Part shown: piece by piece, positions 4,475 through 23,093 of the stretch | Layout: each line of letters opens with the position of its first letter | How positions within the stretch are numbered: position 1 is the stretch's first letter | Origin: a virus | Taxonomy: Duplodnaviria > Heunggongvirae > Uroviricota > Caudoviricetes | DNA length: 26,412 nucleotides | Virus record (IMG/VR): IMGVR_UViG_2529292890_000002 | Location: 1-26,412 of that record | Direction: 5' to 3' (one strand) | Notes under the pieces: model-generated | What the model saw: only the letters and a program-made list of their open reading frames with translations | Told to the model about the DNA's origin: nothing | Database searches by the model: none | Made by a program: the position numbers and the translations under genes

Positions 4475-4653
4475 TGAATCTTATAGACGCCTGGATCGTT
4501 GAAATCATAAGCGTGAGTCGTGGCGAGATTGTGCCGTATTGGTTGGTTGAGGCGAAAGTAACAGCTTATGGAAGGGAGTCAATAACCACAATTCTGAAGA
4601 AATCAGAAGAGGAAGCCAAAGCCGTTAAAGTAGGGGATGTAGTTCAAATATGA
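4474..4653 (+). CDS. Hypothetical 59-aa protein, coupled between dam and A
   Basis: ATG overlaps Dam stop (TAATG) and its stop overlaps the A start (ATGA); translation MNLIDAWIVEIISV...DVVQI read by hand; not in the ORF track. Confidence 0.4.
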   Translation: MNLIDAWIVEIISVSRGEIVPYWLVEAKVTAYGRESITTILKKSEEEAKAVKVGDVVQI

Positions 4654-7037
4654 CCACGGAAACCCGTGGCCGTCGCGCCCCTTCTCCACCTCCACCGTAT
4701 CCGGGTAGCACTGACAATGCTATCCCTTACGCTTATGGCGGGAACAAACCATACCAGCCGATTGGCGTTGATGTAGCGCCGGGGCTGGATGGTTTCGACT
4801 ATCTCACGCCGGATGGCACGCGTAAGCATATTGCGTTCAGTGAACTGGTAGCGGAAGACGAAAAGCCAGAACGCAGTAAGCTGCTGCGTCGCCGTCTGGC
4901 TTCACTTCCGCAGTATGTTCGCCGCCACTTTGCCGCGAAGCTTGATGCGCTGGACGCGAAAGACCGTAAAGCGGCAGATCACTGGCTGGTTAATACCTTT
5001 GAGCGCCACGTATTAACTCGTATTGATAACGTAAACAGCATTTACCAGCCTGACAGCGTGATGCCCGGTATTCTGCTGCCTATCCGCGATCAGCTTTTCC
5101 GTATTCTCTGGGCGGGAAAAAAAGAGTTAAAAAGACTGGCTTATACGCTTGCCGATATCTTTACGAGCGAGTTTATACGCGAGTCCGATCACCAGTTGGC
5201 GCACACCGGCGATCCAGAGTTTGCGGCACTTTCTGGCTATGGTCGTATTGCGTCGCTGGCGGTGCATCTGAAAACGCCGATTCCCGGCTGGACAGCGTAT
5301 TGCAATGAAGAACTTGAAGCGGAGGACGCGTTACGCGCGGTTCTTCGTCTTGAGTCACCGCAGTGGTGGTTAAACCGCCTGCGTCGTATCCATGCCCGCT
5401 GGCGCGAGCATTTGATGATCGCTACGGGATACGTACAGGTGAAAGCCTCTCCGTACAGTAGCGCACCGTGTCTTACGGAATGGCTGGCCCAGAAAAAGGC
5501 TAACCGTGAATACCTCAAGGCTATGGAACTGGAGGATCAGGACACGGGCGAACGCATTTCACTGATCGATAAAGTCGCCGGCAGTGTTGCCAATCCGGCC
5601 AATCGTCGCCGCGAACTCATGACGAGAATGCGCGGATTTGAAGAACTGGCGAAGCTGGAAGGGCTGGCCGGTGACTTCTACACGCTGACAGCGCCTTCCC
5701 GTTATCACTCTATGCAGCACAATGGTCTTCGCAATAATAAATACCGTGGTGCGTCGCCGCGCGAGACGCAGCAGTATCTTTGCAAAGTCTGGGCGAGAAC
5801 CCGCGCCGCGTGGAAGAGAAAAGGTATCCGGGTCTTTGGCTTTCGTGTGGTGGAACCGCACCACGATGCAACGCCGCACTGGCATTTGCTTCTTTTTATG
5901 CGCCCGGAATGCGTTGAGCAGGCGCGTGAAATCTTCCGTAAACATGCCCTGAAAGAAGACGGCAACGAACCGGGAGCGCAGGAAAACCGCTTTCAGGTTG
6001 TGCCGATCGATGAAGCCCACGGCAGCGCTACCGGCTATATAGCGAAATACATTTCGAAGAATATTGACGGCTTCGCGTTGGATGGCGAGAAGGACGATGA
6101 AACCGGGGAAGATCTGAAAGAAATGTCTCTCCGCGTTAGCGCGTGGGCGTCGCGCTGGTCTATTCGCCAGTTTCAGCAGATCGGCGGTGCGCCGGTCACG
6201 GTATATCGCGAGCTTCGCCGCTTGGGCGATCGCGAACTGGTGTTACACCCTGAACTGGAAACCGCCCGGCAGGCCGCTAACGGTGGCGAATGGGATAACT
6301 ACGTATTAGCCCAGGGTGGCCCGTTGGTTGAGCGCGATAAGCTGCGCATCCGTCTGAATTATGAAACCACTGAAAACGGCAACGCCTACGGCGATAACGT
6401 CCAGCGAATCACCGGTATCTATTGCCCGCTTACGGGTAATAACTCTTTGATCTTCACCCGCACCACTCAATACAAAATCGTGCCGAAGCGTCAGAGCGCT
6501 GACGGTGTGGCCGTTGACGTTGGTTTTTCAGGCGGCAGCGCCGCCCCTCGGAGTTCTGTCAATAACTGTACGCGGGATCCCGCGGCAGGTGCTGACGGTG
6601 TTGAACATGCCGCCAGCGAAGCTAAAGAACAGTCAGGAATGACTGTGCCAGCTGAGGGCGTGACGGTGAATTTTGATGCGCTTTCACGGCAGGAAAAGCG
6701 AGAACTGGCGCAGCGGCTTAGTGACGATGTGCGAAGTAAGCGTAAAAAACGGCCACTGGAACGGGAAGAGGGGGCCGGGCTATCCGTGAAAGAGCAGCAG
6801 ATCAGTGAACTGCTGGCGCTGCGTGGGATTGATGCCAGCGCCGGAATGGTCAGATCGATGATTGCGGGTGCGTCAGTGGCGTGCGGCGATCTTGTTATGA
6901 CCGTGCAGGACGGGCGGCTGGTATCGCGCAACCGCGCAGCGTCCGGGCTGGATAAGCTACCGTCGCAGGTGATGGCGGCGAAGCAAAAAACAAGTGATCT
7001 TGTGAACAGGATGAAAGCAGCATTTTCGCGGAACTAA
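4650..7037 (+). CDS. A: Replication initiation protein A (rolling-circle nicking initiator, P2 gpA-like)
   Basis: 795 aa; HUH-type motif HWHLLLF and paired catalytic tyrosines YIAKYISK (Y-x-x-K-Y); sits between the early genes and the cargo/cos region as in P2. Confidence 0.9.
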   Translation: MTTETRGRRAPSPPPPYPGSTDNAIPYAYGGNKPYQPIGVDVAPGLDGFDYLTPDGTRKHIAFSELVAEDEKPERSKLLRRRLASLPQYVRRHFAAKLDALDAKDRKAADHWLVNTFERHVLTRIDNVNSIYQPDSVMPGILLPIRDQLFRILWAGKKELKRLAYTLADIFTSEFIRESDHQLAHTGDPEFAALSGYGRIASLAVHLKTPIPGWTAYCNEELEAEDALRAVLRLESPQWWLNRLRRIHARWREHLMIATGYVQVKASPYSSAPCLTEWLAQKKANREYLKAMELEDQDTGERISLIDKVAGSVANPANRRRELMTRMRGFEELAKLEGLAGDFYTLTAPSRYHSMQHNGLRNNKYRGASPRETQQYLCKVWARTRAAWKRKGIRVFGFRVVEPHHDATPHWHLLLFMRPECVEQAREIFRKHALKEDGNEPGAQENRFQVVPIDEAHGSATGYIAKYISKNIDGFALDGEKDDETGEDLKEMSLRVSAWASRWSIRQFQQIGGAPVTVYRELRRLGDRELVLHPELETARQAANGGEWDNYVLAQGGPLVERDKLRIRLNYETTENGNAYGDNVQRITGIYCPLTGNNSLIFTRTTQYKIVPKRQSADGVAVDVGFSGGSAAPRSSVNNCTRDPAAGADGVEHAASEAKEQSGMTVPAEGVTVNFDALSRQEKRELAQRLSDDVRSKRKKRPLEREEGAGLSVKEQQISELLALRGIDASAGMVRSMIAGASVACGDLVMTVQDGRLVSRNRAASGLDKLPSQVMAAKQKTSDLVNRMKAAFSRN

Positions 7038-7195: not shown

Positions 7196-8194
7196 ATGAC
7201 GAACCATAATCAGATGAGTCAGATATATTCTAAATTCGGCCGGGCCGGGTTTAATCTCTCTTACATCCGCAGGTTGTTGCCTGACTGGTGGGATGAGAAG
7301 CTTGCTGACACCCCATCAGGGCGCCAGTATGCGTGCCTGCACCTTGCGCGTATGTTTAGCATTCTCCCGGATAGCCTGAAAGATGGTAGCGAAGGGGTAT
7401 GCTTTAATTTTGGTGGAAACCATAAATATAAACATCGCCAAAATGTAGCCGAGAACGATTTAGATATCGCTACTGCTGTTGCCTATACTGCGGCCGGTAT
7501 TGTCGCGTCTAATTTCAAAGTCCCTTACGATGCCAGTGCAGTGCTGGATCCTTTGGCTATAAGAACCCAGATTCTTACTAAGGAATCATGGGTATCGCTA
7601 GATAGCCTGGTAACATACTGTCATTCGATTGGCATTCCTGTTGTTTATCTAAAATGCTTCCCTCAAGCTGCCAAAAAAATGGCCGGGCTGGCGCTAATGA
7701 GTCACGGGCGCCCGGTGATTGTTCTTACTCAGCCTCAGAAATATGGCTATATGCTGTTTGATCTCGCGCATGAGTTAGGCCATATCGCCAGAGGGCATCT
7801 GAACGCAGAAAACGGGCAGTGCCATATTGATGCAAAAATTGAGAATGCTTCGACGGACAACGTAGAGAAAGAAGCCAACGAATTCGCCTTCCAGGTCATT
7901 TCGGGGCAGAAGTCTTTACGTATCGTTCCTACCGCTGGCAGGTTGAATGGGCCTGGTTTGGCTCGCGCGGCTCAAAAGTTTGGAAGTGATAATCACATTG
8001 ACCCGACTCACATCGCTTTAAATTATGGTTTCGCGCAGAACTGCTGGGGCGCTGCTGTTAACGCTGTTAAAGCACTCTGTGCTGGTGAAGACTCAGATCA
8101 GGATTTTGTGAGGGCCATGATGAAAAGCGGGATGGATTTAGAAAATATCCACGAAGATGATCTTAAGGTTTTAGAAAATCTAATCGGGGAATAA
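7196..8194 (+). CDS. Cargo protein with ImmA/IrrE-type (M78-like) HEXXH metallopeptidase motif; N-terminal ~180 aa of unknown function
   Basis: Strong SD AGGAGG 5 nt before ATG; motif MLFDLAHELGHIARGHL; AT-rich by eye; own upstream promoter-like sequence. Confidence 0.6.
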   Translation: MTNHNQMSQIYSKFGRAGFNLSYIRRLLPDWWDEKLADTPSGRQYACLHLARMFSILPDSLKDGSEGVCFNFGGNHKYKHRQNVAENDLDIATAVAYTAAGIVASNFKVPYDASAVLDPLAIRTQILTKESWVSLDSLVTYCHSIGIPVVYLKCFPQAAKKMAGLALMSHGRPVIVLTQPQKYGYMLFDLAHELGHIARGHLNAENGQCHIDAKIENASTDNVEKEANEFAFQVISGQKSLRIVPTAGRLNGPGLARAAQKFGSDNHIDPTHIALNYGFAQNCWGAAVNAVKALCAGEDSDQDFVRAMMKSGMDLENIHEDDLKVLENLIGE

Positions 8195-8197
8195 TAA

Positions 8198-8836
8198 GTG
8201 ATTGTTCTTTCTGACAATGATGTCATTTTGAAGCTGGCCCAGTGCAATCTGTTATCACAACTGCCAGTGGTTTTTAACCAACCCCCCGAACAGATCTTCA
8301 TTAACCCTGCTGCTCGTTTTCAGCTTCTGCCGAAAAATCCTGATAAAGCAATCAGGAAGTGTGGTAGCCAGGTTGTTTACGAGCAGGTGGGAGCCTTCAT
8401 TGAATCTGTACAGGATATCCCGGAAGTTCAGGACTCACAGCTTATTGAGCTTTTGGGGAGTGTGCCCGGAATTGATGTAGGCGAACAGCTATTGCTTGCC
8501 TCGTGCATAGAGAACCCAGAAGCCATTTTCATGACTGGTGATCGCCGCTGTTTGACTGCAATTGTTGCAAACCAACCGGCCCTTTCCGTGATTCATCAGC
8601 GTTTACTGGATGCAGTTGTTACCTTTGAGTCGTCACTTTTGTTATGTGTCCACGGTACAGATCAGGCTCAAGTTTATGAAAATTTGGTGAGCAATCCTAA
8701 ACCTGACGGCATGTTGAAATTGGCTCTTTCAAACGCTGGCGCTGCAATGTGCGAATGTATCTTTTCCCATACTCGTGAGTTTTACGATTACCTTGCCTTC
8801 AAAGATCGACTTCCTGATCGGGAGTGGGGAAGGTAA
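8198..8836 (+). CDS. Cargo partner protein of unknown function (possible PIN-like fold, speculative)
   Basis: GTG start 3 nt after the upstream stop with GGGGA upstream; 212 aa; N-terminal IVLSDNDVILKL plus later acidic residues (IDVGEQ, FMTGDRR) loosely resemble PIN nucleases; followed by a terminator. Confidence 0.5.
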   Translation: MIVLSDNDVILKLAQCNLLSQLPVVFNQPPEQIFINPAARFQLLPKNPDKAIRKCGSQVVYEQVGAFIESVQDIPEVQDSQLIELLGSVPGIDVGEQLLLASCIENPEAIFMTGDRRCLTAIVANQPALSVIHQRLLDAVVTFESSLLLCVHGTDQAQVYENLVSNPKPDGMLKLALSNAGAAMCECIFSHTREFYDYLAFKDRLPDREWGR

Positions 8837-8842
8837 AAAATT

Positions 8843-8866
8843 AAGGGCTAACAAAGCCCTTTTTTA
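8843..8866 (+). terminator. Rho-independent terminator closing the cargo operon
   Basis: Stem AAGGGCT (8843-8849), loop AACAA, stem AGCCCTT (8855-8861), then a T-run (8860-8865); A-run upstream could allow bidirectional function. Confidence 0.6.
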
Positions 8867-8890
8867 TTGCGCCAAAAACACTGCAAAAAA

Positions 8891-8980
8891 TTGCACATAA
8901 ATGCACAAATATTTCGGCATTCGTATTATCACGACAGGCCAGACGGGGCGGGCCTTCCGGTGGTTTGCACATTTGCACAA
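8891..8980. repeat. Two copies of a TTGCACA-N-TGCACAA motif (8891-8908 and 8965-8980) flanking the cos-like site; candidate packaging or regulatory protein sites
   Basis: Seen directly: TTGCACATAAATGCACAA and TTGCACATTTGCACAA. Confidence 0.4.
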
Positions 8981-9002
8981 AAAAGCGGGGTTTCTGCGTG
9001 CG

Positions 9003-9021
9003 GGCGAGGCGGGGGAATGAG
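9003..9021. other. Probable cos (cohesive-end) site
   Basis: GGCGAGGCGGGGGAATGAG matches the start of the P2 cos sequence (GGCGAGGCGGGGAAAGCAC, recalled from memory); position between the cargo and Q is as in P2. Confidence 0.5.
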
Positions 9022-9231
9022 CGCGCGCTGAGGGGTGGGATAGGGTCGGTATTATCTGCGCCGATTTTCGCGCCGCTGCGCCTCGCTGCTGCGTCGTTTT
9101 CGGTTCGCTGTGGTGGTTTGAGGCAAAAGAAAAGCCCCTGCCAGCGGGCTGCTGAGGGGCTTACGTGCGGTGTGGTCAGTTGCGGCCGTGCTGGCCGTTC
9201 CACGGTGGTGGTGGGTGTGTCCGGGCTGGCG

Positions 9232-10281
9232 TCAGATTGCTGCCTGCAACAGTGCGTAAGGGTTGAAGCGCACCACGTCGATCCCCAGCCAGTCGTTTAA
9301 CTCTTTCAGGCTTTCTTGTATCGGGGCCAGTTCGTTGATGGAAAACACCTTCGCCGCTTTCTCTACGTCGCCGAAGCCACCGGAGTTATTCGGCATTACC
9401 CCCATCAGAACGGGCGGCACGCGGTGCGCGGCTAACAGGTCGTCGCGGGTGGCGTCTTTGATGCCGGTAAACTCATCCTTCGCCGCCACCTGGCTGAACG
9501 GCATAATTTGCAGGCCGTCTTTTTTCCCGCCCGCCGCGTAGACAAACAGGTTTTTAAAAGCACCGTTGCCGCGTGCATCTTTCAGCGACTTCTTAAGCTT
9601 TTCCACATCGTTATTATTCGCCACCGGGTCAGTGAGGTAGACGATCACACCCGCATGACTGCCGTTAATGTAGTAGTTGCGGCGGAACACCGTTGCTTCA
9701 CCGTTCAGCATGGCGCTTTGTAGCGCGGCCAGATATTCCGGCGCGCCGTAGATCTCCTGGTGCGGGCTGGGGTTCTTGATCTGGCAGACGCTGCCCGGTT
9801 CGAACGCGTGATCGTCAACGTAGCGCGGAACAAACCAGAATTGAGCCGGGTCTATGCCGCGACGCGTATATTTCGCTTGGCTGTGCCGCAGTTCAATCGG
9901 CTGGCCGAGTCGGTTGCGGCGGCATTCCATGTAACAGTTACCGAAAATTAAATAATCCTGCACCCAGGCGGTGAACTCCTGCCGGGTCAATAGCGGGTGT
10001 GGTATGTAGCAACTGGCGATAACATTGCGTTTAAATATCAGCGGTGACTGGTGATAGGCGGCAACGTCGAACATGCGCGCAAGCCCGTAGGGGCTGATCG
10101 GTGGTTCATACCAGCGGCCATTGTTATGGCATTCGAGGCACTCCATAAGAGACGCGCGATCGTTGACTGCGATCGGGTCGCCAAAGCTGAAAGATTCCAC
10201 GCTTTCCAGCGGGGTGGCTGCGTTGCTGGCCGTGCTGGCTGGCGCAGCAGTTGGCGCCCTGAATTTCTTTTTGCCGCTCAA
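9232..10281 (-). CDS. Q: Portal protein (P2 gpQ-like)
   Basis: 349 aa directly downstream of P on the same strand; first codon is TTG next to the P stop; overall resemblance to P2 portal as recalled. Confidence 0.85.
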   Translation of the reverse strand: MSGKKKFRAPTAAPASTASNAATPLESVESFSFGDPIAVNDRASLMECLECHNNGRWYEPPISPYGLARMFDVAAYHQSPLIFKRNVIASCYIPHPLLTRQEFTAWVQDYLIFGNCYMECRRNRLGQPIELRHSQAKYTRRGIDPAQFWFVPRYVDDHAFEPGSVCQIKNPSPHQEIYGAPEYLAALQSAMLNGEATVFRRNYYINGSHAGVIVYLTDPVANNNDVEKLKKSLKDARGNGAFKNLFVYAAGGKKDGLQIMPFSQVAAKDEFTGIKDATRDDLLAAHRVPPVLMGVMPNNSGGFGDVEKAAKVFSINELAPIQESLKELNDWLGIDVVRFNPYALLQAAI

Positions 10282-11994
10282 TTAAAACTCCTCCACAAAA
10301 CTGCCGTTATCGCCGGTCACTTCCGCGCCGATCGGTTCGTTGTAAATGCCCTGCATAGTTGCCCATGCCAGATCGCCGTGATTGCTGCCACGGGCGCGAT
10401 CTGACTGGTAGGTAATAACGCCGCCAGCGGTGACTTTACGCACGGTCATAAACGACTGTGCGAGATCCATCATTCCGGCGTCGAACTCAAAGCGCCCGGC
10501 GCGAATGACCATCAACATTTTGAGCACCATCGACCGCTTAAGAACCGGTGAATAGTTGTATTTAACCGCCTGCGGGAAGAACTTGATCACCAGTTGATAA
10601 ACCGCATCGCCGATCCCCGTGCCGTCGATAGCAATGTGCTGCACGTTGTAGCGGGTGGTGATCTCTTTAATAAAATTGGCCTGCTCTTCGTACTCCATGC
10701 CGCGTAACTGGTGGCGCTCTACCGCGCGGAACTTACCACCCGGCACGGCTGGCGGGGCCAGCACAACCAGACCGGCGCTGTCGCCTTTGCCGCTGCTGCC
10801 GTTGGGGTCATAGCTAACCCAGACAGGGCGATTACCCAGCGGGCGGGGTGCAAACGGGTTCCAGTCCGGCCACGCGTCCGGCATGTAGCCATCAACGCCG
10901 CAGCCCAGAATTGCGTTGTAGTCGAAGGCGCGTTCCCCGGCTTTAACGAACATGCAGCCGTACAGGTTGGCGTATTCGTCGGGGGAGTTTTCGTTACGGA
11001 TTTCATCGGTATCAACCAGATCGAAGCCGAGCTTCACGGCGTCTTCCAGCGTGACTATCTGGCGCCAGATGTTATCCCCGCATAGCTTGCCGTTTTTTAG
11101 TGCCTTATAACTGGTGTCGATATCCACCCGATCGGAGCGGCGGCGGTTTTTATTGAACTGATCGCCAGTCCAGAAGGGATAGGCTTCATGTTCTTCACTG
11201 GAAGGCGTCGAAAAGTAGGTGCGGCGCAGTCCTTTTTGTGTCGCCATGCCTGCGGCCACTGAGCGCAGTTTGATGAAATTACTGATCCAGAAGGCTTCAT
11301 CAAGGTACAGATCGCCGGTGTAGCTCTGGGCCGTCGCGGCGGAGGTGCCGAGAAAATACAGGATCGCACCGTTGCTTAACTCAATGGCATCACCGCCCTT
11401 AAGTTCTACTCCTATTTCCCTTGCCAGCTTCTGAATGAACCGCTTGAACTGGAACGCCTGGGCGCGGCTGGCTGACAGGAATATCTGGTTATTTCCGGTT
11501 TCCAGCGCACGCAACAGCGCTTCGCGGGCAAAGTACCAGGTGGCACCAATCTGACGCGATTTGAGGATAAAGCGGTTACGCCGGTTCCACTGTTTGAACC
11601 AGCGTTTTTGATGCTCGTAGAGCGAATCAAAGACCAGGGCGCGAAGCTGGGTTATCTGTTCTTCGGTGAAATGGTTTTTCGGGGTCTTCGCCTTCTTCTC
11701 TTTCTCCTGGTCGCGTCGCTCATGCCGTTCAAAGCGGTCAAGCTGGCGCGCCAGCAGGTCAATTTCTTTGAAGTCCTTCGGGGTTTTGTCGTCCTTTTCC
11801 ACCAGGCGCAGGTAACGAACGTGTGTGCGATCCTGCACCCGTTGCATGGGGGTGGCTTTATCCCATTCGTAGCGGCGGCGCCAACTGTAGATCGTGTTAA
11901 TGCTCACCCCGATTTCCTTAGAAATCTGAGTGATGCTAAACGCCTGCCAGTAGAGGCTTTTGGCTTTTGTGCTGAGGTCTTCGGCTGTATTCAT
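10282..11994 (-). CDS. P: Terminase large (ATPase) subunit (P2 gpP-like)
   Basis: 570 aa with ATG start; Walker-A-like KSRQIGATWYF; divergent from the O operon as in P2. Confidence 0.9.
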   Translation of the reverse strand: MNTAEDLSTKAKSLYWQAFSITQISKEIGVSINTIYSWRRRYEWDKATPMQRVQDRTHVRYLRLVEKDDKTPKDFKEIDLLARQLDRFERHERRDQEKEKKAKTPKNHFTEEQITQLRALVFDSLYEHQKRWFKQWNRRNRFILKSRQIGATWYFAREALLRALETGNNQIFLSASRAQAFQFKRFIQKLAREIGVELKGGDAIELSNGAILYFLGTSAATAQSYTGDLYLDEAFWISNFIKLRSVAAGMATQKGLRRTYFSTPSSEEHEAYPFWTGDQFNKNRRRSDRVDIDTSYKALKNGKLCGDNIWRQIVTLEDAVKLGFDLVDTDEIRNENSPDEYANLYGCMFVKAGERAFDYNAILGCGVDGYMPDAWPDWNPFAPRPLGNRPVWVSYDPNGSSGKGDSAGLVVLAPPAVPGGKFRAVERHQLRGMEYEEQANFIKEITTRYNVQHIAIDGTGIGDAVYQLVIKFFPQAVKYNYSPVLKRSMVLKMLMVIRAGRFEFDAGMMDLAQSFMTVRKVTAGGVITYQSDRARGSNHGDLAWATMQGIYNEPIGAEVTGDNGSFVEEF

Positions 11995-12040: not shown

Positions 12041-12058
12041 TGTCGCCTGAGTCCGACA
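12041..12058. promoter_or_regulatory. TGT-N12-ACA dyad (Ogr/Delta-type late activator site) in the P/O divergent region
   Basis: TGT CGCCTGAGTCCG ACA, part of the inverted repeat TTGTCG-N8-CGACAA, about 100 bp upstream of the O start. Confidence 0.5.
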
Positions 12059-14122: not shown

Positions 14123-14971
14123 ATGTTGACACCTGCTCAACAACATTTTAACCGCGTGATGGCTGAACGCCGCCACACCAGCCGTGAGCCGTCGCAGCTT
14201 GAAATGACGGCCTACGAAACCATGCTTCACCGCCTGCGACTGGATAAAGCCCGTTTGAGCCGTGTCCAGTCCCAGAAGGCTAAAGCGGATTTAAAACGCG
14301 AACTGCTGCCGGATTACCAGCCGTGGATCGAAGGCGTACTTACGGCAGATTCCGGCCAGTCTGACGACGTGTTAACCACTATCATGATCTGGTGTTGTGA
14401 CTGCGGAAACATCGCCGAAGCCCTGCGAATTGGTCAGTACGTGTTGCGCCATAAGTTGCCGATGCCGGATCAGTATCGCCGCACCACCGCCACCGTACTG
14501 GTGGAAGAAATTTGCGATCCCGTCCTAGCTGCATTCAAAGCTAACCCAGCTGTTGCGCCGGTCGCCGCTGACCTGCTGGAAGCGTTACGGGGCTTAACCC
14601 TGAATGAAGATATGCCGGATGAGGTGCGCTCAAAGCTGCTTAAGGCGCTGGGGTATACGCTGCGCCTGACTGACAACGTTGAATCGCTTACCGCTGCGGT
14701 TGAATACCTGCGCCAGGCGGCAGTGTTGAACCCGAAAAAAGCAGGCGTAACCCGTGATATTGAGCTTCTGCAACGTGCGCTTAAGAAGTCCGGGCAACCT
14801 GCTGACGGTGACGGCGCAGACGCCAAGCCAGAAGCAAACAGCACCGAAACCCAGACGGCAACGCTGCCAGCCCAGCCAAAAGCGAAGCGGGAAACCAAAA
14901 AGCCCGCCGCTAAAAGCAAGCCGGCAGCGAAGAAAAGAACCACGACAGCCCGCCAGAAGGCGGCTTCATAA
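14123..14971 (+). CDS. M: Terminase small / endonuclease subunit (P2 gpM-like)
   Basis: 282 aa; KRELLPDYQPWIEGVL and DMPDEVRSKL resemble P2 gpM as recalled, including a Lys/Ala/Pro-rich basic C-terminal tail. Confidence 0.85.
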   Translation: MLTPAQQHFNRVMAERRHTSREPSQLEMTAYETMLHRLRLDKARLSRVQSQKAKADLKRELLPDYQPWIEGVLTADSGQSDDVLTTIMIWCCDCGNIAEALRIGQYVLRHKLPMPDQYRRTTATVLVEEICDPVLAAFKANPAVAPVAADLLEALRGLTLNEDMPDEVRSKLLKALGYTLRLTDNVESLTAAVEYLRQAAVLNPKKAGVTRDIELLQRALKKSGQPADGDGADAKPEANSTETQTATLPAQPKAKRETKKPAAKSKPAAKKRTTTARQKAAS

Positions 14972-15073
14972 CCGAACGTGCCCCCGCGCACCCAGGCGGC
15001 ACGGCAGGCGAAAACAGGCAACACCGCGTCTTCGTCCTGCCGTCCACCGCCTGACTTATACGGAGTAGAGATC

Positions 15074-15562
15074 ATGAGTCTGGTAGCCACTGAGCCAGTA
15101 CGGCCACCATCCGATCCAGTGCCTGATGATGGCGGCGCGAAGGTTGAAAGCCTGCCATTCTGGCCGGTCATTTCGCTGGCTGAACTACGCCGCGCGATGC
15201 GTCTTGATGGGCAGGTGACAACCGATCGCCTGATGTCGCGAACGGTGGAAGCGGTGGCCCATGTTAATGATCAGCTTTTCCTGTGGCGCCAGGTGCAGAT
15301 TGATGCGGGATATCAGGCATTGGCAGAAATTCCGGCAAGTCCGGTGAATGGCATTTCCGTGAAGGTATGGCGCTATAAAAACGCCGTGTATTCACTCACT
15401 AAGGCGCTGTTAATTGAAGGCTACCGCGATATTGACACCACCAGTAAAGGCGAAGACCACGCGGCGGCATTAAGCACGCAGATCGATACGCTGTGGCGGG
15501 ATGTGCGCTGGTCAATCCGTGATATCCAGGACGAAAGCCGGGGCCTGGCGGAGTTGGTGTAA
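15074..15562 (+). CDS. L: Head completion / stabilisation protein (P2 gpL-like)
   Basis: Start at ATG 15074 (GGAG upstream), in frame within track ORF 14978..15562; stop overlaps the X start (TAATG). Confidence 0.8.
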   Translation: MSLVATEPVRPPSDPVPDDGGAKVESLPFWPVISLAELRRAMRLDGQVTTDRLMSRTVEAVAHVNDQLFLWRQVQIDAGYQALAEIPASPVNGISVKVWRYKNAVYSLTKALLIEGYRDIDTTSKGEDHAAALSTQIDTLWRDVRWSIRDIQDESRGLAELV

Positions 15563-16878: not shown

Positions 16879-16895
16879 TGTGCTGTGCAGGTCAT

Positions 16896-16970
16896 TTTTA
16901 ATTGTGCTGGCCGTGCGTATCGAGCGCGGTCATTTTTGACAGTGCTCCAGCACGTCCGGTATTGACGGTG
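16896..16970. repeat. Copy 1 of a ~70-bp direct repeat, with internal sub-repeats GGTCATTTTT-N-GTGCT and a GTGCT-CC-AGCAC dyad
   Basis: Hand alignment to 22981-23055: a 21-bp identical core GTGCTGGCCGTGCGTATCGAG plus about 46 further positions at roughly 70% identity (about 80% overall). Confidence 0.7.
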
Positions 16971-16992
16971 CGAGCTGGCGAGAGGTTTTGAA

Positions 16993-17526
16993 ATGGGGCT
17001 GTTTTCACGCTGGAAAGTGATCGTTTGTCTTGTGCTGGCCGCTGCTGCTGTCTGGGGTTTTAGCCACTGGCGTTACAGTGCCGGTTATGGTGATGCCGAT
17101 CAGCACTGGCGTGAAGAGTGGGCGCAACGTGATGCACGCGACGCCACTGCGCTGGCACAAAGGCAGGCTAAGGCCAGGGCAGAAGAACAACGCCGACAAG
17201 GTGAAATTGATGCGATCAGAAAACAAGCCAGCCAGCAGCTTGCTGGCGTGCAGGCTGATGCCGATCGTGCCCGTGCTGCTTCTCGTGGGCTGCACGACAG
17301 GGCCGACAAACTCGCCAGGCAACTGGCAGACCGTGAACGCGCCTGCGGTGCCGGAACTCCCGGCAGAAGCGAGGCAGAAACCAGCGGCGCCGTACTGCTC
17401 GCCGACCTGTTCCGCCGCGCTGACGATCGAGCGGGGCAACTGGCAAAAGATGCTGATGAAGCAAGAGCCAGAGGATTAGCCTGTGAGGCTGCATATGATG
17501 CGGTTAAGTCCGGGAGGGATAAGTAA
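16993..17526 (+). CDS. i-spanin (Rz / LysB-like)
   Basis: N-terminal transmembrane anchor KVIVCLVLAAAAVWGF then a charged, Ala/Arg/Gln-rich coiled-coil-like periplasmic region; GAGAGG SD; follows the endolysin. Confidence 0.7.
   Translation: MGLFSRWKVIVCLVLAAAAVWGFSHWRYSAGYGDADQHWREEWAQRDARDATALAQRQAKARAEEQRRQGEIDAIRKQASQQLAGVQADADRARAASRGLHDRADKLARQLADRERACGAGTPGRSEAETSGAVLLADLFRRADDRAGQLAKDADEARARGLACEAAYDAVKSGRDK
17210..17479 (+). CDS. o-spanin (Rz1 / LysC-like lipoprotein) embedded in the +1 frame of the i-spanin gene
   Basis: ATG 17210 with AAGGTG SD; signal peptide ending in lipobox LLVGC; Pro-rich mature part; alternative start at 17258. Confidence 0.6.
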   Translation: MRSENKPASSLLACRLMPIVPVLLLVGCTTGPTNSPGNWQTVNAPAVPELPAEARQKPAAPYCSPTCSAALTIERGNWQKMLMKQEPED

Positions 17527-18626: not shown

Positions 18627-18644
18627 TGTCACCAACCCGCCACA
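18627..18644. promoter_or_regulatory. TGT-N12-ACA dyad (late activator site) upstream of V
   Basis: TGT CACCAACCCGCC ACA just past the S stop, about 150 bp upstream of the V start. Confidence 0.45.
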
Positions 18645-22954: not shown

Positions 22955-22980
22955 GTTTTCATTCCGGCACGCATGGCCGG

Positions 22981-23055
22981 TTCTAACCGTGCTGGCCGTG
23001 CGTATCGAGTACAGTCATTTTTAACGGTGCTGTAGCACGGTCAGTTATGGCGGTG
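22981..23055. repeat. Copy 2 of the ~70-bp direct repeat, in the convergent G/U intergenic region
   Basis: Aligns to 16896-16970 (identical 21-bp core GTGCTGGCCGTGCGTATCGAG; GTGCT-GT-AGCAC dyad). Confidence 0.7.
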
Positions 23056-23071
23056 TGTTCCGGAAGACGAA

Positions 23072-23093
23072 GCGGGCAAAGGCCCGCTTTTCT
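23072..23093 (+). terminator. Rho-independent terminator at the convergent G/U junction (likely bidirectional)
   Basis: Stem GCGGGC, loop AAAG, stem GCCCGC, then TTTTCT; A-rich GAAGACGAA on the 5' side. Confidence 0.6.

Follow-up and report, generated by a model that had tools for sequence, protein, structure and literature searches.

Homology places a cohesive-end packaging site, flanked by phased TGCA repeats, in a P2-like prophage

Introduction

Where is the DNA of a P2-like prophage cut for packaging, and what does the packaging enzyme read at that place? The question is raised by a cluster of short sequence features at 8880-9231 of a viral DNA stretch of 26,412 nt (IMG/VR record IMGVR_UViG_2529292890_000002), here called the window, by which we mean the whole stretch analysed. 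An earlier note on this DNA had called the interval cos-like, had pointed to two TTGCACA-N-TGCACAA repeats as elements for terminase or an accessory factor, and had proposed that an 11-mer shared with two repeat elements elsewhere in the window links the packaging region to them through a common binding protein. Is the interval a cos site, do the repeats belong to it, and does the 11-mer belong to either?

The gene neighbourhood is that of a P2-like phage

Megablast searches of the window against phage records returned Salmonella phages SEN4 and SEN5 (Peduoviridae, Senquatrovirus), with ~96% identity over the aligned 78% of the query. By this resemblance the window is a P2-like, Senquatrovirus (SEN4/5)-type prophage, which may be defective and may lie only in part inside the window. 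SEN5 is annotated with the order of genes known from P2, which runs from integrase, repressor and cox to gene A and the accessory genes and continues with portal, large terminase, scaffold, capsid and small terminase, and on to the lysis and tail genes. The window shows the same layout in its succession of gpA, cargo, cos, portal and TerL. Gene A, identified by Pfam, occupies 4650-7037, and two cargo genes on the + strand (7196-8194 and 8198-8836) fill the space between it and cos. The cos position at 9003 thus has the gene A/accessory hotspot on one side and, on the other, the portal-terminase (Q-P) operon, which is read divergently. This operon, on the - strand, consists of the portal gene, homologous to P2 Q (9232-10281, with its stop codon at 9232; PF04860 and SEN5 annotation), and the large terminase gene, homologous to P2 P (10282-11994; PF03237, PF17289, PF06056 and, for the N-terminal HTH, HTH_23). 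The small terminase gene, homologous to P2 M, lies at 14123-14971 on the + strand (PF05944, E=3.5e-42). The terminase proteins share 47% identity with P2 gpP and 41% with P2 gpM, so that a cognate gpM-type small and gpP-type large subunit are both encoded in cis in the window; the large subunit acts in trans and presumably makes the nicks at cos.

Rousset et al. have described a cos-proximal cargo hotspot between gpA and gpQ at which P2-like phages carry anti-phage systems (PMC9122126). In the window, the product of the first cargo gene has an IrrE/M78-peptidase domain and weak PADLOC matches to PD-Lambda-2_B, capP and RmrA, and that of the second (212 aa) has no Pfam or PADLOC match. SEN5 differs here, with SEN5_46/47 upstream of about -147 (numbering from 9003 as +1) where the window has the M78-peptidase-like gene and the gene of no known family. 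The same cargo as in the window is found elsewhere in IMG/VR, 100% identical in one locus (L113) and 97-98% identical in three others (L035, L063 and L076). A hairpin and T-run on the + strand end the upstream cargo operon at 8843-8871 (terminator-like at 8843-8861, then TTTTTTATT). Homology to relatives with different cargo begins at ~8856 (~-147), just past this terminator, and the hairpin and T-run mark the left edge of the conserved cos flank, which sets the right-hand boundary of the hotspot at ~8856. A scan of genome contigs for an exact 48-nt piece of the cos flank matched a sole species representative, Citrobacter sp. NCU1, whose identity to the window is 92% across 4.7 kb.

A predicted 19-nt cohesive end and a homologue of the 55-bp cos core

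With blastn of 8700-9400, base 1 of both the SEN4 and the SEN5 record coincides with window position 9003, and identity is 99.5% over 9003-9400; the neighbourhood on the portal side is also the same. The 19 nucleotides that start here, GGCGAGGCGGGGGAATGAG (9003-9021, + strand), are the predicted 5' cohesive end, equivalent to cosN. They agree at 18/19 positions with the published sticky end of SEN4/5, ggcgaggcgggggaacgag, which was called P2-like by authors who do not state the method of its determination (PMC5261728); the one difference is T for C at 9018. The P2 record annotates cosL at 1-19 as GGCGAGGCGGGGAAAGCAC, exactly the sequence that the earlier note had given, and the resemblance which that note had seen at 9003-9021 is borne out at 15/19 identities, with the first 12 bases all matching. 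The exact 19-mer of the window is present in 20/119 collected cos regions.

The similarity extends to both sides of the cohesive end. A 55-bp cos core common to P2 and P4 is credited to Ziermann & Calendar 1990 in the passages on cos of PMC5694545, PMC3931495 and PMC9594776; P2 and P4 are 52/55 identical over exactly -29..+26. The homologous segment of the window, 8974-9028, is identical to SEN5 at 54/55 positions, to P2 and to P4 at 36/55 each, and to 186 at 33/55, which is the alignment to P2 and 186 that had been proposed as a check. We collected 119 IMG/VR stretches with the pattern GGCGAGGCGGGG-N8-GCGCGCTGA, together with P2, P4, 186 and SEN5, and reduced the set to 76 non-redundant regions (<80% upstream identity). 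The window matches every invariant column of these 76 loci (TGCA, AAAA, GCG.GC, GGCGAGGCGGGG and GCGCGC), where conservation within +1..+29 is partly built in by the collection pattern, which covers these positions.

The predicted cohesive end is framed by a rotationally symmetric flank. Its left half, GCGTGCG (8996-9002), abuts the predicted top-strand nick, and its right half, CGCGCGC (9022-9028), is followed by a conserved TGA(G)GGG; the left half matches the reverse complement of the right (GCGCGCG) at 6/7 positions. The family consensus reads GCGgGCg before the cohesive end and tGCGCGC after it.

As the SEN5 record starts at 9003, the published sticky end is one base off and 15/19 bases are shared with P2 cosL, we consider the description of this interval as cos-like to be right: 8856-9031 is very probably the cos (cohesive-end packaging) site of the P2-like, SEN4/5-type prophage, read by its terminase. 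Its identification is secure by homology, while the physical ends and nick positions in this particular prophage are predictions. A cos site of this kind is already known, having been published for the near-identical phage SEN4/5.

Phased TGCA repeats are a family-wide feature of the cos flank

The cos flank of the window carries two groups of TGCA repeats on the + strand. The distal trio (8882-8908) has TGCA starts at 8882, 8892 and 8902 (-121, -111 and -101), a phasing of 10 bp, with A-tracts; the proximal pair (8965-8984) has TGCA at 8966 and 8974 (-37 and -29) and is followed by an A6 tract. Both TTGCACA-N-TGCACAA copies described earlier are exact: the first, TTGCACATAAATGCACAA at 8891-8908, falls in the distal trio, and the second, TTGCACATTTGCACAA at 8965-8980, is the proximal pair. 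All 4/4 forward-strand copies of TGCACA in the 26,412-nt window lie inside 88 nt (8892-8979), a clustering with a chance of ~1e-7 by simple arithmetic.

This arrangement is found across the family. Of the 76 non-redundant cos regions, 84% have a GCAY starting at -100, 68% one at -110, 60% one at -120/-123 and 93% one at -28; likewise TGCAY stands at -29 in 93% of the loci, and AAAA at -23..-20 is nearly invariant. The TGCAY layout (~-121/-111/-101 and -29) is common to P2, 186 and the satellite P4. Satellite P4 depends on the P2 terminase for packaging, and it has kept the trio at -123/-110/-100, though P2 and P4 are identical at only 12/66 positions between -95 and -30.

Between the two groups of repeats lies a GC-rich block, AGGCCAGACGGGGCGGGCCT (8936-8955), with CCAG at -64..-61 and a short AGGCC/GGCCT dyad. 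A block of the form CCAG...GG.G.G / CCAG...GGCGCG is conserved in position near -60 in the consensus of the 76 loci; P2 is without this block and without the -37 repeat. The dyad was tried as a conserved hairpin (-70..-45) and is not taken as one, since it is modestly enriched over shuffles and absent in P2.

The last base of the repeats varies together with the cohesive end. Scored for proximal repeat, distal repeat and overhang position +13, the 76 loci comprise 37 with TGCAT/TGCAT/A, 23 with TGCAC/TGCAC/G and 16 with other combinations. The joint switching of proximal and distal repeats with the cohesive-end subtype suggests recognition by a phage-specific terminase; it could also reflect two clades rather than functional coupling, with shared ancestry partly behind it. 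The individual distal repeats differ even between close relatives, reading CGCAT/TGCAT/TGCAC in SEN5 and TGCAA/TGCAC/TGCAC here.

The distal trio falls outside the published 55-bp core. In the passages on P2/P4 cos of PMC5694545, PMC3931495 and PMC9594776 the 55-bp core alone is mentioned, and full-text searches of the literature for the repeat motif strings returned nothing relevant. We regard the TGCA repeat architecture as a sound family-wide feature, possibly an under-described one.

What reads these repeats? They might instead be sites at which a host factor (IHF, Fis or H-NS, with phased A-tracts) bends the DNA, or promoter elements of the cargo genes. A-tracts do stand beside every repeat, and the window has a weak sigma-70-like match, TGCACA-16-TATTAT, at 8902-8929; in P2, by our own reading of its sequence, the old-tin transcripts start at ~-150 and run away from cos, so that their promoter would overlap the TGCAT trio. 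However, the repeats hold fixed positions relative to the nick whatever the orientation of the cargo: in the window and in 186 the cargo lies on the + strand and its terminators are at ~-150. The TATTAT element is confined to one sub-lineage, and a search of -170..-1 with up to one mismatch (<=1) found no IHF consensus. For a host-factor site, moreover, one would not expect TGCAT and TGCAC to alternate with the cohesive-end subtype in phages whose enterobacterial hosts are related, and P4 keeps the trio without other homology in the flank. We therefore consider a host-factor or promoter role unlikely. Conserved positions, co-variation and retention in P4 argue for the repeats as recognition elements and favour a phage-encoded reader over a host factor, and the suggestion that terminase or an accessory factor recognizes them is thus plausible on comparative grounds. 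The gpM-like small terminase is the candidate reader.

We tentatively extend this to the family. The phased TGCAY repeats, i.e. the trio and the repeat at -29, may represent an uncharacterised 'cosB' of all P2-family phages, in at least two co-varying specificity classes that set cross-packaging between helpers and satellites. As part of the same tentative proposal, one class would comprise TGCAT repeats with A at +13 (P2, 186 and P4), and the other, of TGCAC repeats with G at +13, would take in the SEN4-like phages, this prophage among them.

The shared 11-mer probably does not tie cos to the repeat elements

The top-strand sequence to the right of the cohesive end is GC-rich, as had been remarked for 9060-9230: it has 66% GC, as does 9003-9231 as a whole, vs 54% for the window. 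Over 9003-9231 the top strand is also strongly enriched in G and in G+T (GC skew +0.29, G+T 66%), GGGGTGGGATAGGG and GGTGGTGGTGGG being examples of its runs; P2 has a similar composition between the nick and the portal stop. No canonical Chi site is present anywhere in the window.

A terminator scan and the centroid fold place an intrinsic terminator of the portal-terminase (Q-P) operon at ~9120-9161 on the - strand, equivalent in place to tQ, which is annotated at 160-181 in the P2 record. The cos site falls in the 3' region of the portal mRNA, upstream of its terminator. Between the portal stop codon (9232) and the terminator, the untranslated part of this transcript includes a small 5-bp hairpin, CGGCC-GTGCT-GGCCG (9183-9198), which contains the 11-mer GTGCTGGCCGT (9188-9198). 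The RNA fold of the portal 3' region is not significant (z = -0.94).

As the earlier note had reported, the 11-mer occurs at 9188, 16904 and 22989, which are exactly three positions in the window, all on the + strand. Its further claim, that three copies are very unlikely by chance, does not hold: those at 16904 and 22989 belong to a single element that is present in duplicate (16896-16970 and 22981-23055, 79% identical), and together they make one event. When these two repeats were held fixed, some 11-mer of the 21-nt block that they share recurred elsewhere in the window in 17% (order-1 Markov) or 27% (order-3) of simulations. The block yields a second real match, the 12-mer TGCTGGCCGTGC at 10224-10235, on the antisense strand of the portal gene, and TTGTGCTGGCC is found again near 17030 and, on the - strand, within 10756-10766, so that GC-rich words from the block turn up repeatedly in the phage without obvious meaning.

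Three readings of the site can be weighed against one another. The first makes GTGCTGGCCGT a protein-binding site through which the two ~75-nt repeat elements would be coupled to the packaging region. Its three exact copies, all on the + strand, speak for this, and the similarity does run upstream of the 11-mer, at 20/26 between 9173-9198 and 22974-22999, with a borderline match of the full-element profile at 9161-9199 (E=0.026). That match, however, has a score of 8.0 and a bias of 8.0, and a profile of the 27-nt unit hits 9174-9198 at E=0.58, ranked beside obviously random matches. Similarity between the 9161-9199 site and the repeat element is zero 3' of the 11-mer; the equivalent 12-mer sits inside the portal gene at 10224, and the third match has the chance of 0.17-0.27 given by the simulations above. 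Comparison of lineages points the same way. In five lineages (L004, L060, L104, L105 and L106) the cos flank is the same but the 11-mer carries mutations; among sister lineages with this flank one reads GGCCGTGTAGGCC and another GGCCGTGCGGCC, keeping the GGCC...GGCC arms while the change in the loop destroys the 11-mer. Eight lineages (L045, L050, L052, L071, L096, L102, L115 and L116) have the repeat element without the cos-proximal 11-mer, and one of the two full repeat copies of SEN5 itself reads GTGCTGGCCAT. A common binding site is therefore most improbable.

A related reading takes 9161-9199 for a decayed single unit of the ~110-nt element, a relic of recombination at a module junction without present function. 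It would account for the same borderline profile match and for the motif GGTCA-N9-GTGCTGGCC, which the site has in common with the element units, and the element family does sit at module junctions elsewhere in these phages. Yet the score is dominated by compositional bias, the unit profile is at noise level, and ~25 nt alone can be aligned, with nothing matching downstream of the 11-mer; we consider a relic very unlikely. Most likely, the link of the 11-mer to the two repeat elements is a coincidence, and the hypothesis built on it can be dropped.

A model for packaging and a comparison with known cos systems

The observations fit together in the following model. During lytic growth, terminase, made up of the gpM-like (14123-14971) and gpP-like (10282-11994, N-terminal HTH) subunits, would recognize the right-hand flank: the TGCA trio phased by one helical turn, the GC-rich block near -60, and the TGCA pair with its A-tract at -37/-29. 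Recognition of the flank would place the nuclease over the symmetric GCGYGCG flanks, where the two strands would be nicked 19 nt apart to leave GGCGAGGCGGGGGAATGAG (9003-9021) as a 5' overhang. In the GC-rich tract at 9030-9231 the portal-terminase transcript has its 3' end and its intrinsic terminator, and the 11-mer at 9188-9198 lies there in a small hairpin, its identity to the block of the repeat elements being most likely incidental. The homology, position, conservation and co-variation of the site are observed; the protein that binds the repeats and the exact nick positions are those that we infer from them.

P2, 186 and P4, which have 19-nt 5' ends, share with the window the first 12 bases of the overhang, GCGCGC at +21..+26, TGCAY-AAAA at -29, the TGCAY trio at ~-122/-110/-100 and the location between gene A/accessory genes and portal gene Q. 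They differ from it in having TGCAT repeats where the window has TGCAC, and in the overhang, which here has G at +13 and a GAATGAG tail; with P2, the core is identical at 36/55 positions only. The comparison predicts that signals of SEN4 type and of P2 type are not interchangeable; since the terminase subunits share 41% and 47% identity with their P2 counterparts, cross-packaging with P2 cannot be taken for granted.

The P2-type terminase packages from circular monomers, and the overhang of lambda cos is 12 nt long. The cos site of lambda is organized as cosQ-cosN-cosB, with R1-R3 sites for TerS and an IHF site, I1 (PMC4856287). The site in the window is like it in architecture only, combining a nick site of partial two-fold symmetry with a one-sided array of short repeats that would suit a small-terminase oligomer on bent DNA. 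Unlike lambda, it has a 19-nt overhang by homology, repeats of TGCAY type without similarity to R sites, and its array on the side away from the terminase genes. Membership in the lambda type of cos was rejected on the overhang, the repeats and the lack of an IHF consensus described above.

For annotation, the cos assignment gives the prophage a defined packaging site and likely virion ends. It also bears on the use of P2/P4 cosmids, which serve DNA delivery. In one study, extending the cos flank increased the transduction of P2/P4 cosmids by as much as ~5e4-fold (PMC9594776); the conserved trio, which stands ~100-120 bp from the nick, may account for this large advantage of long cos fragments over short ones. 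If the proposed 'cosB' classes are true, the class would decide which helpers and satellites package each other's DNA.

The intergenic repeat element and its possible resemblance to DNA near the origin

The repeat that contains the other two copies of the 11-mer, earlier described as ~70 bp long, is in fact an intergenic element of ~110 nt made of three tandem ~38-nt sub-units (GTCA-T5-AAC-N-GTGCTG), with an invariant ATCGAG. Its copies lie at 16880-16990 and 22956-23087 in the window, and at 7500-7640, 14985-15125 and 31250-31365 in SEN5 (L001). Without exception the element has the orientation of its neighbouring genes, and it takes up the space between a stop codon and the RBS or terminator that follows. 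Three junctions of SEN4-like phages have it: one follows the endolysin gene, one follows the tail-fibre assembly gene, and one lies in the gpA-cos hotspot, upstream of a methyltransferase gene.

Searches for a known function of the element as RNA or promoter were negative. Rfam gave no match over the whole window at the gathering threshold and, when the cos interval and the two repeat elements were searched at E<=1, only matches far below threshold. An RNA-motif reading was rejected after RNAalifold of 20 non-redundant copies (-3.9 kcal/mol, no covariation). The promoter scan found no promoter consensus in the elements, and the terminator scan of both copies detected a terminator-like hairpin in copy 1 only.

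A further match of the element profile (E=0.0027) falls at 6621-6660, within gene A. It lies 76-115 nt downstream of the start of CCTCGGAGTTCTGTCAATAAC (6546-6566), a conserved ori nick motif of P2 type. A match at the same offset in gene A is found in ~25 other loci, in some of which it extends to +44..+115 (~70 nt; E ~1e-4). Direct alignment of the element with the ori nick core was not significant (p = 0.08-0.8). From the profile match beside the ori nick motif, the intergenic elements may have been copied from DNA that flanks the origin, and P4 ori/crr offers an analogy by which gpA or a host factor might bind them.

Late promoters of Ogr type are absent from the repeat elements. TGT-N12-ACA dyads stand at the expected positions, in the P/O intergenic region (12041-12058) and 5' of the baseplate gene V homologue (18627-18644), in agreement with the late-promoter activator sites of Ogr/B type in the P2 and 186 annotations.
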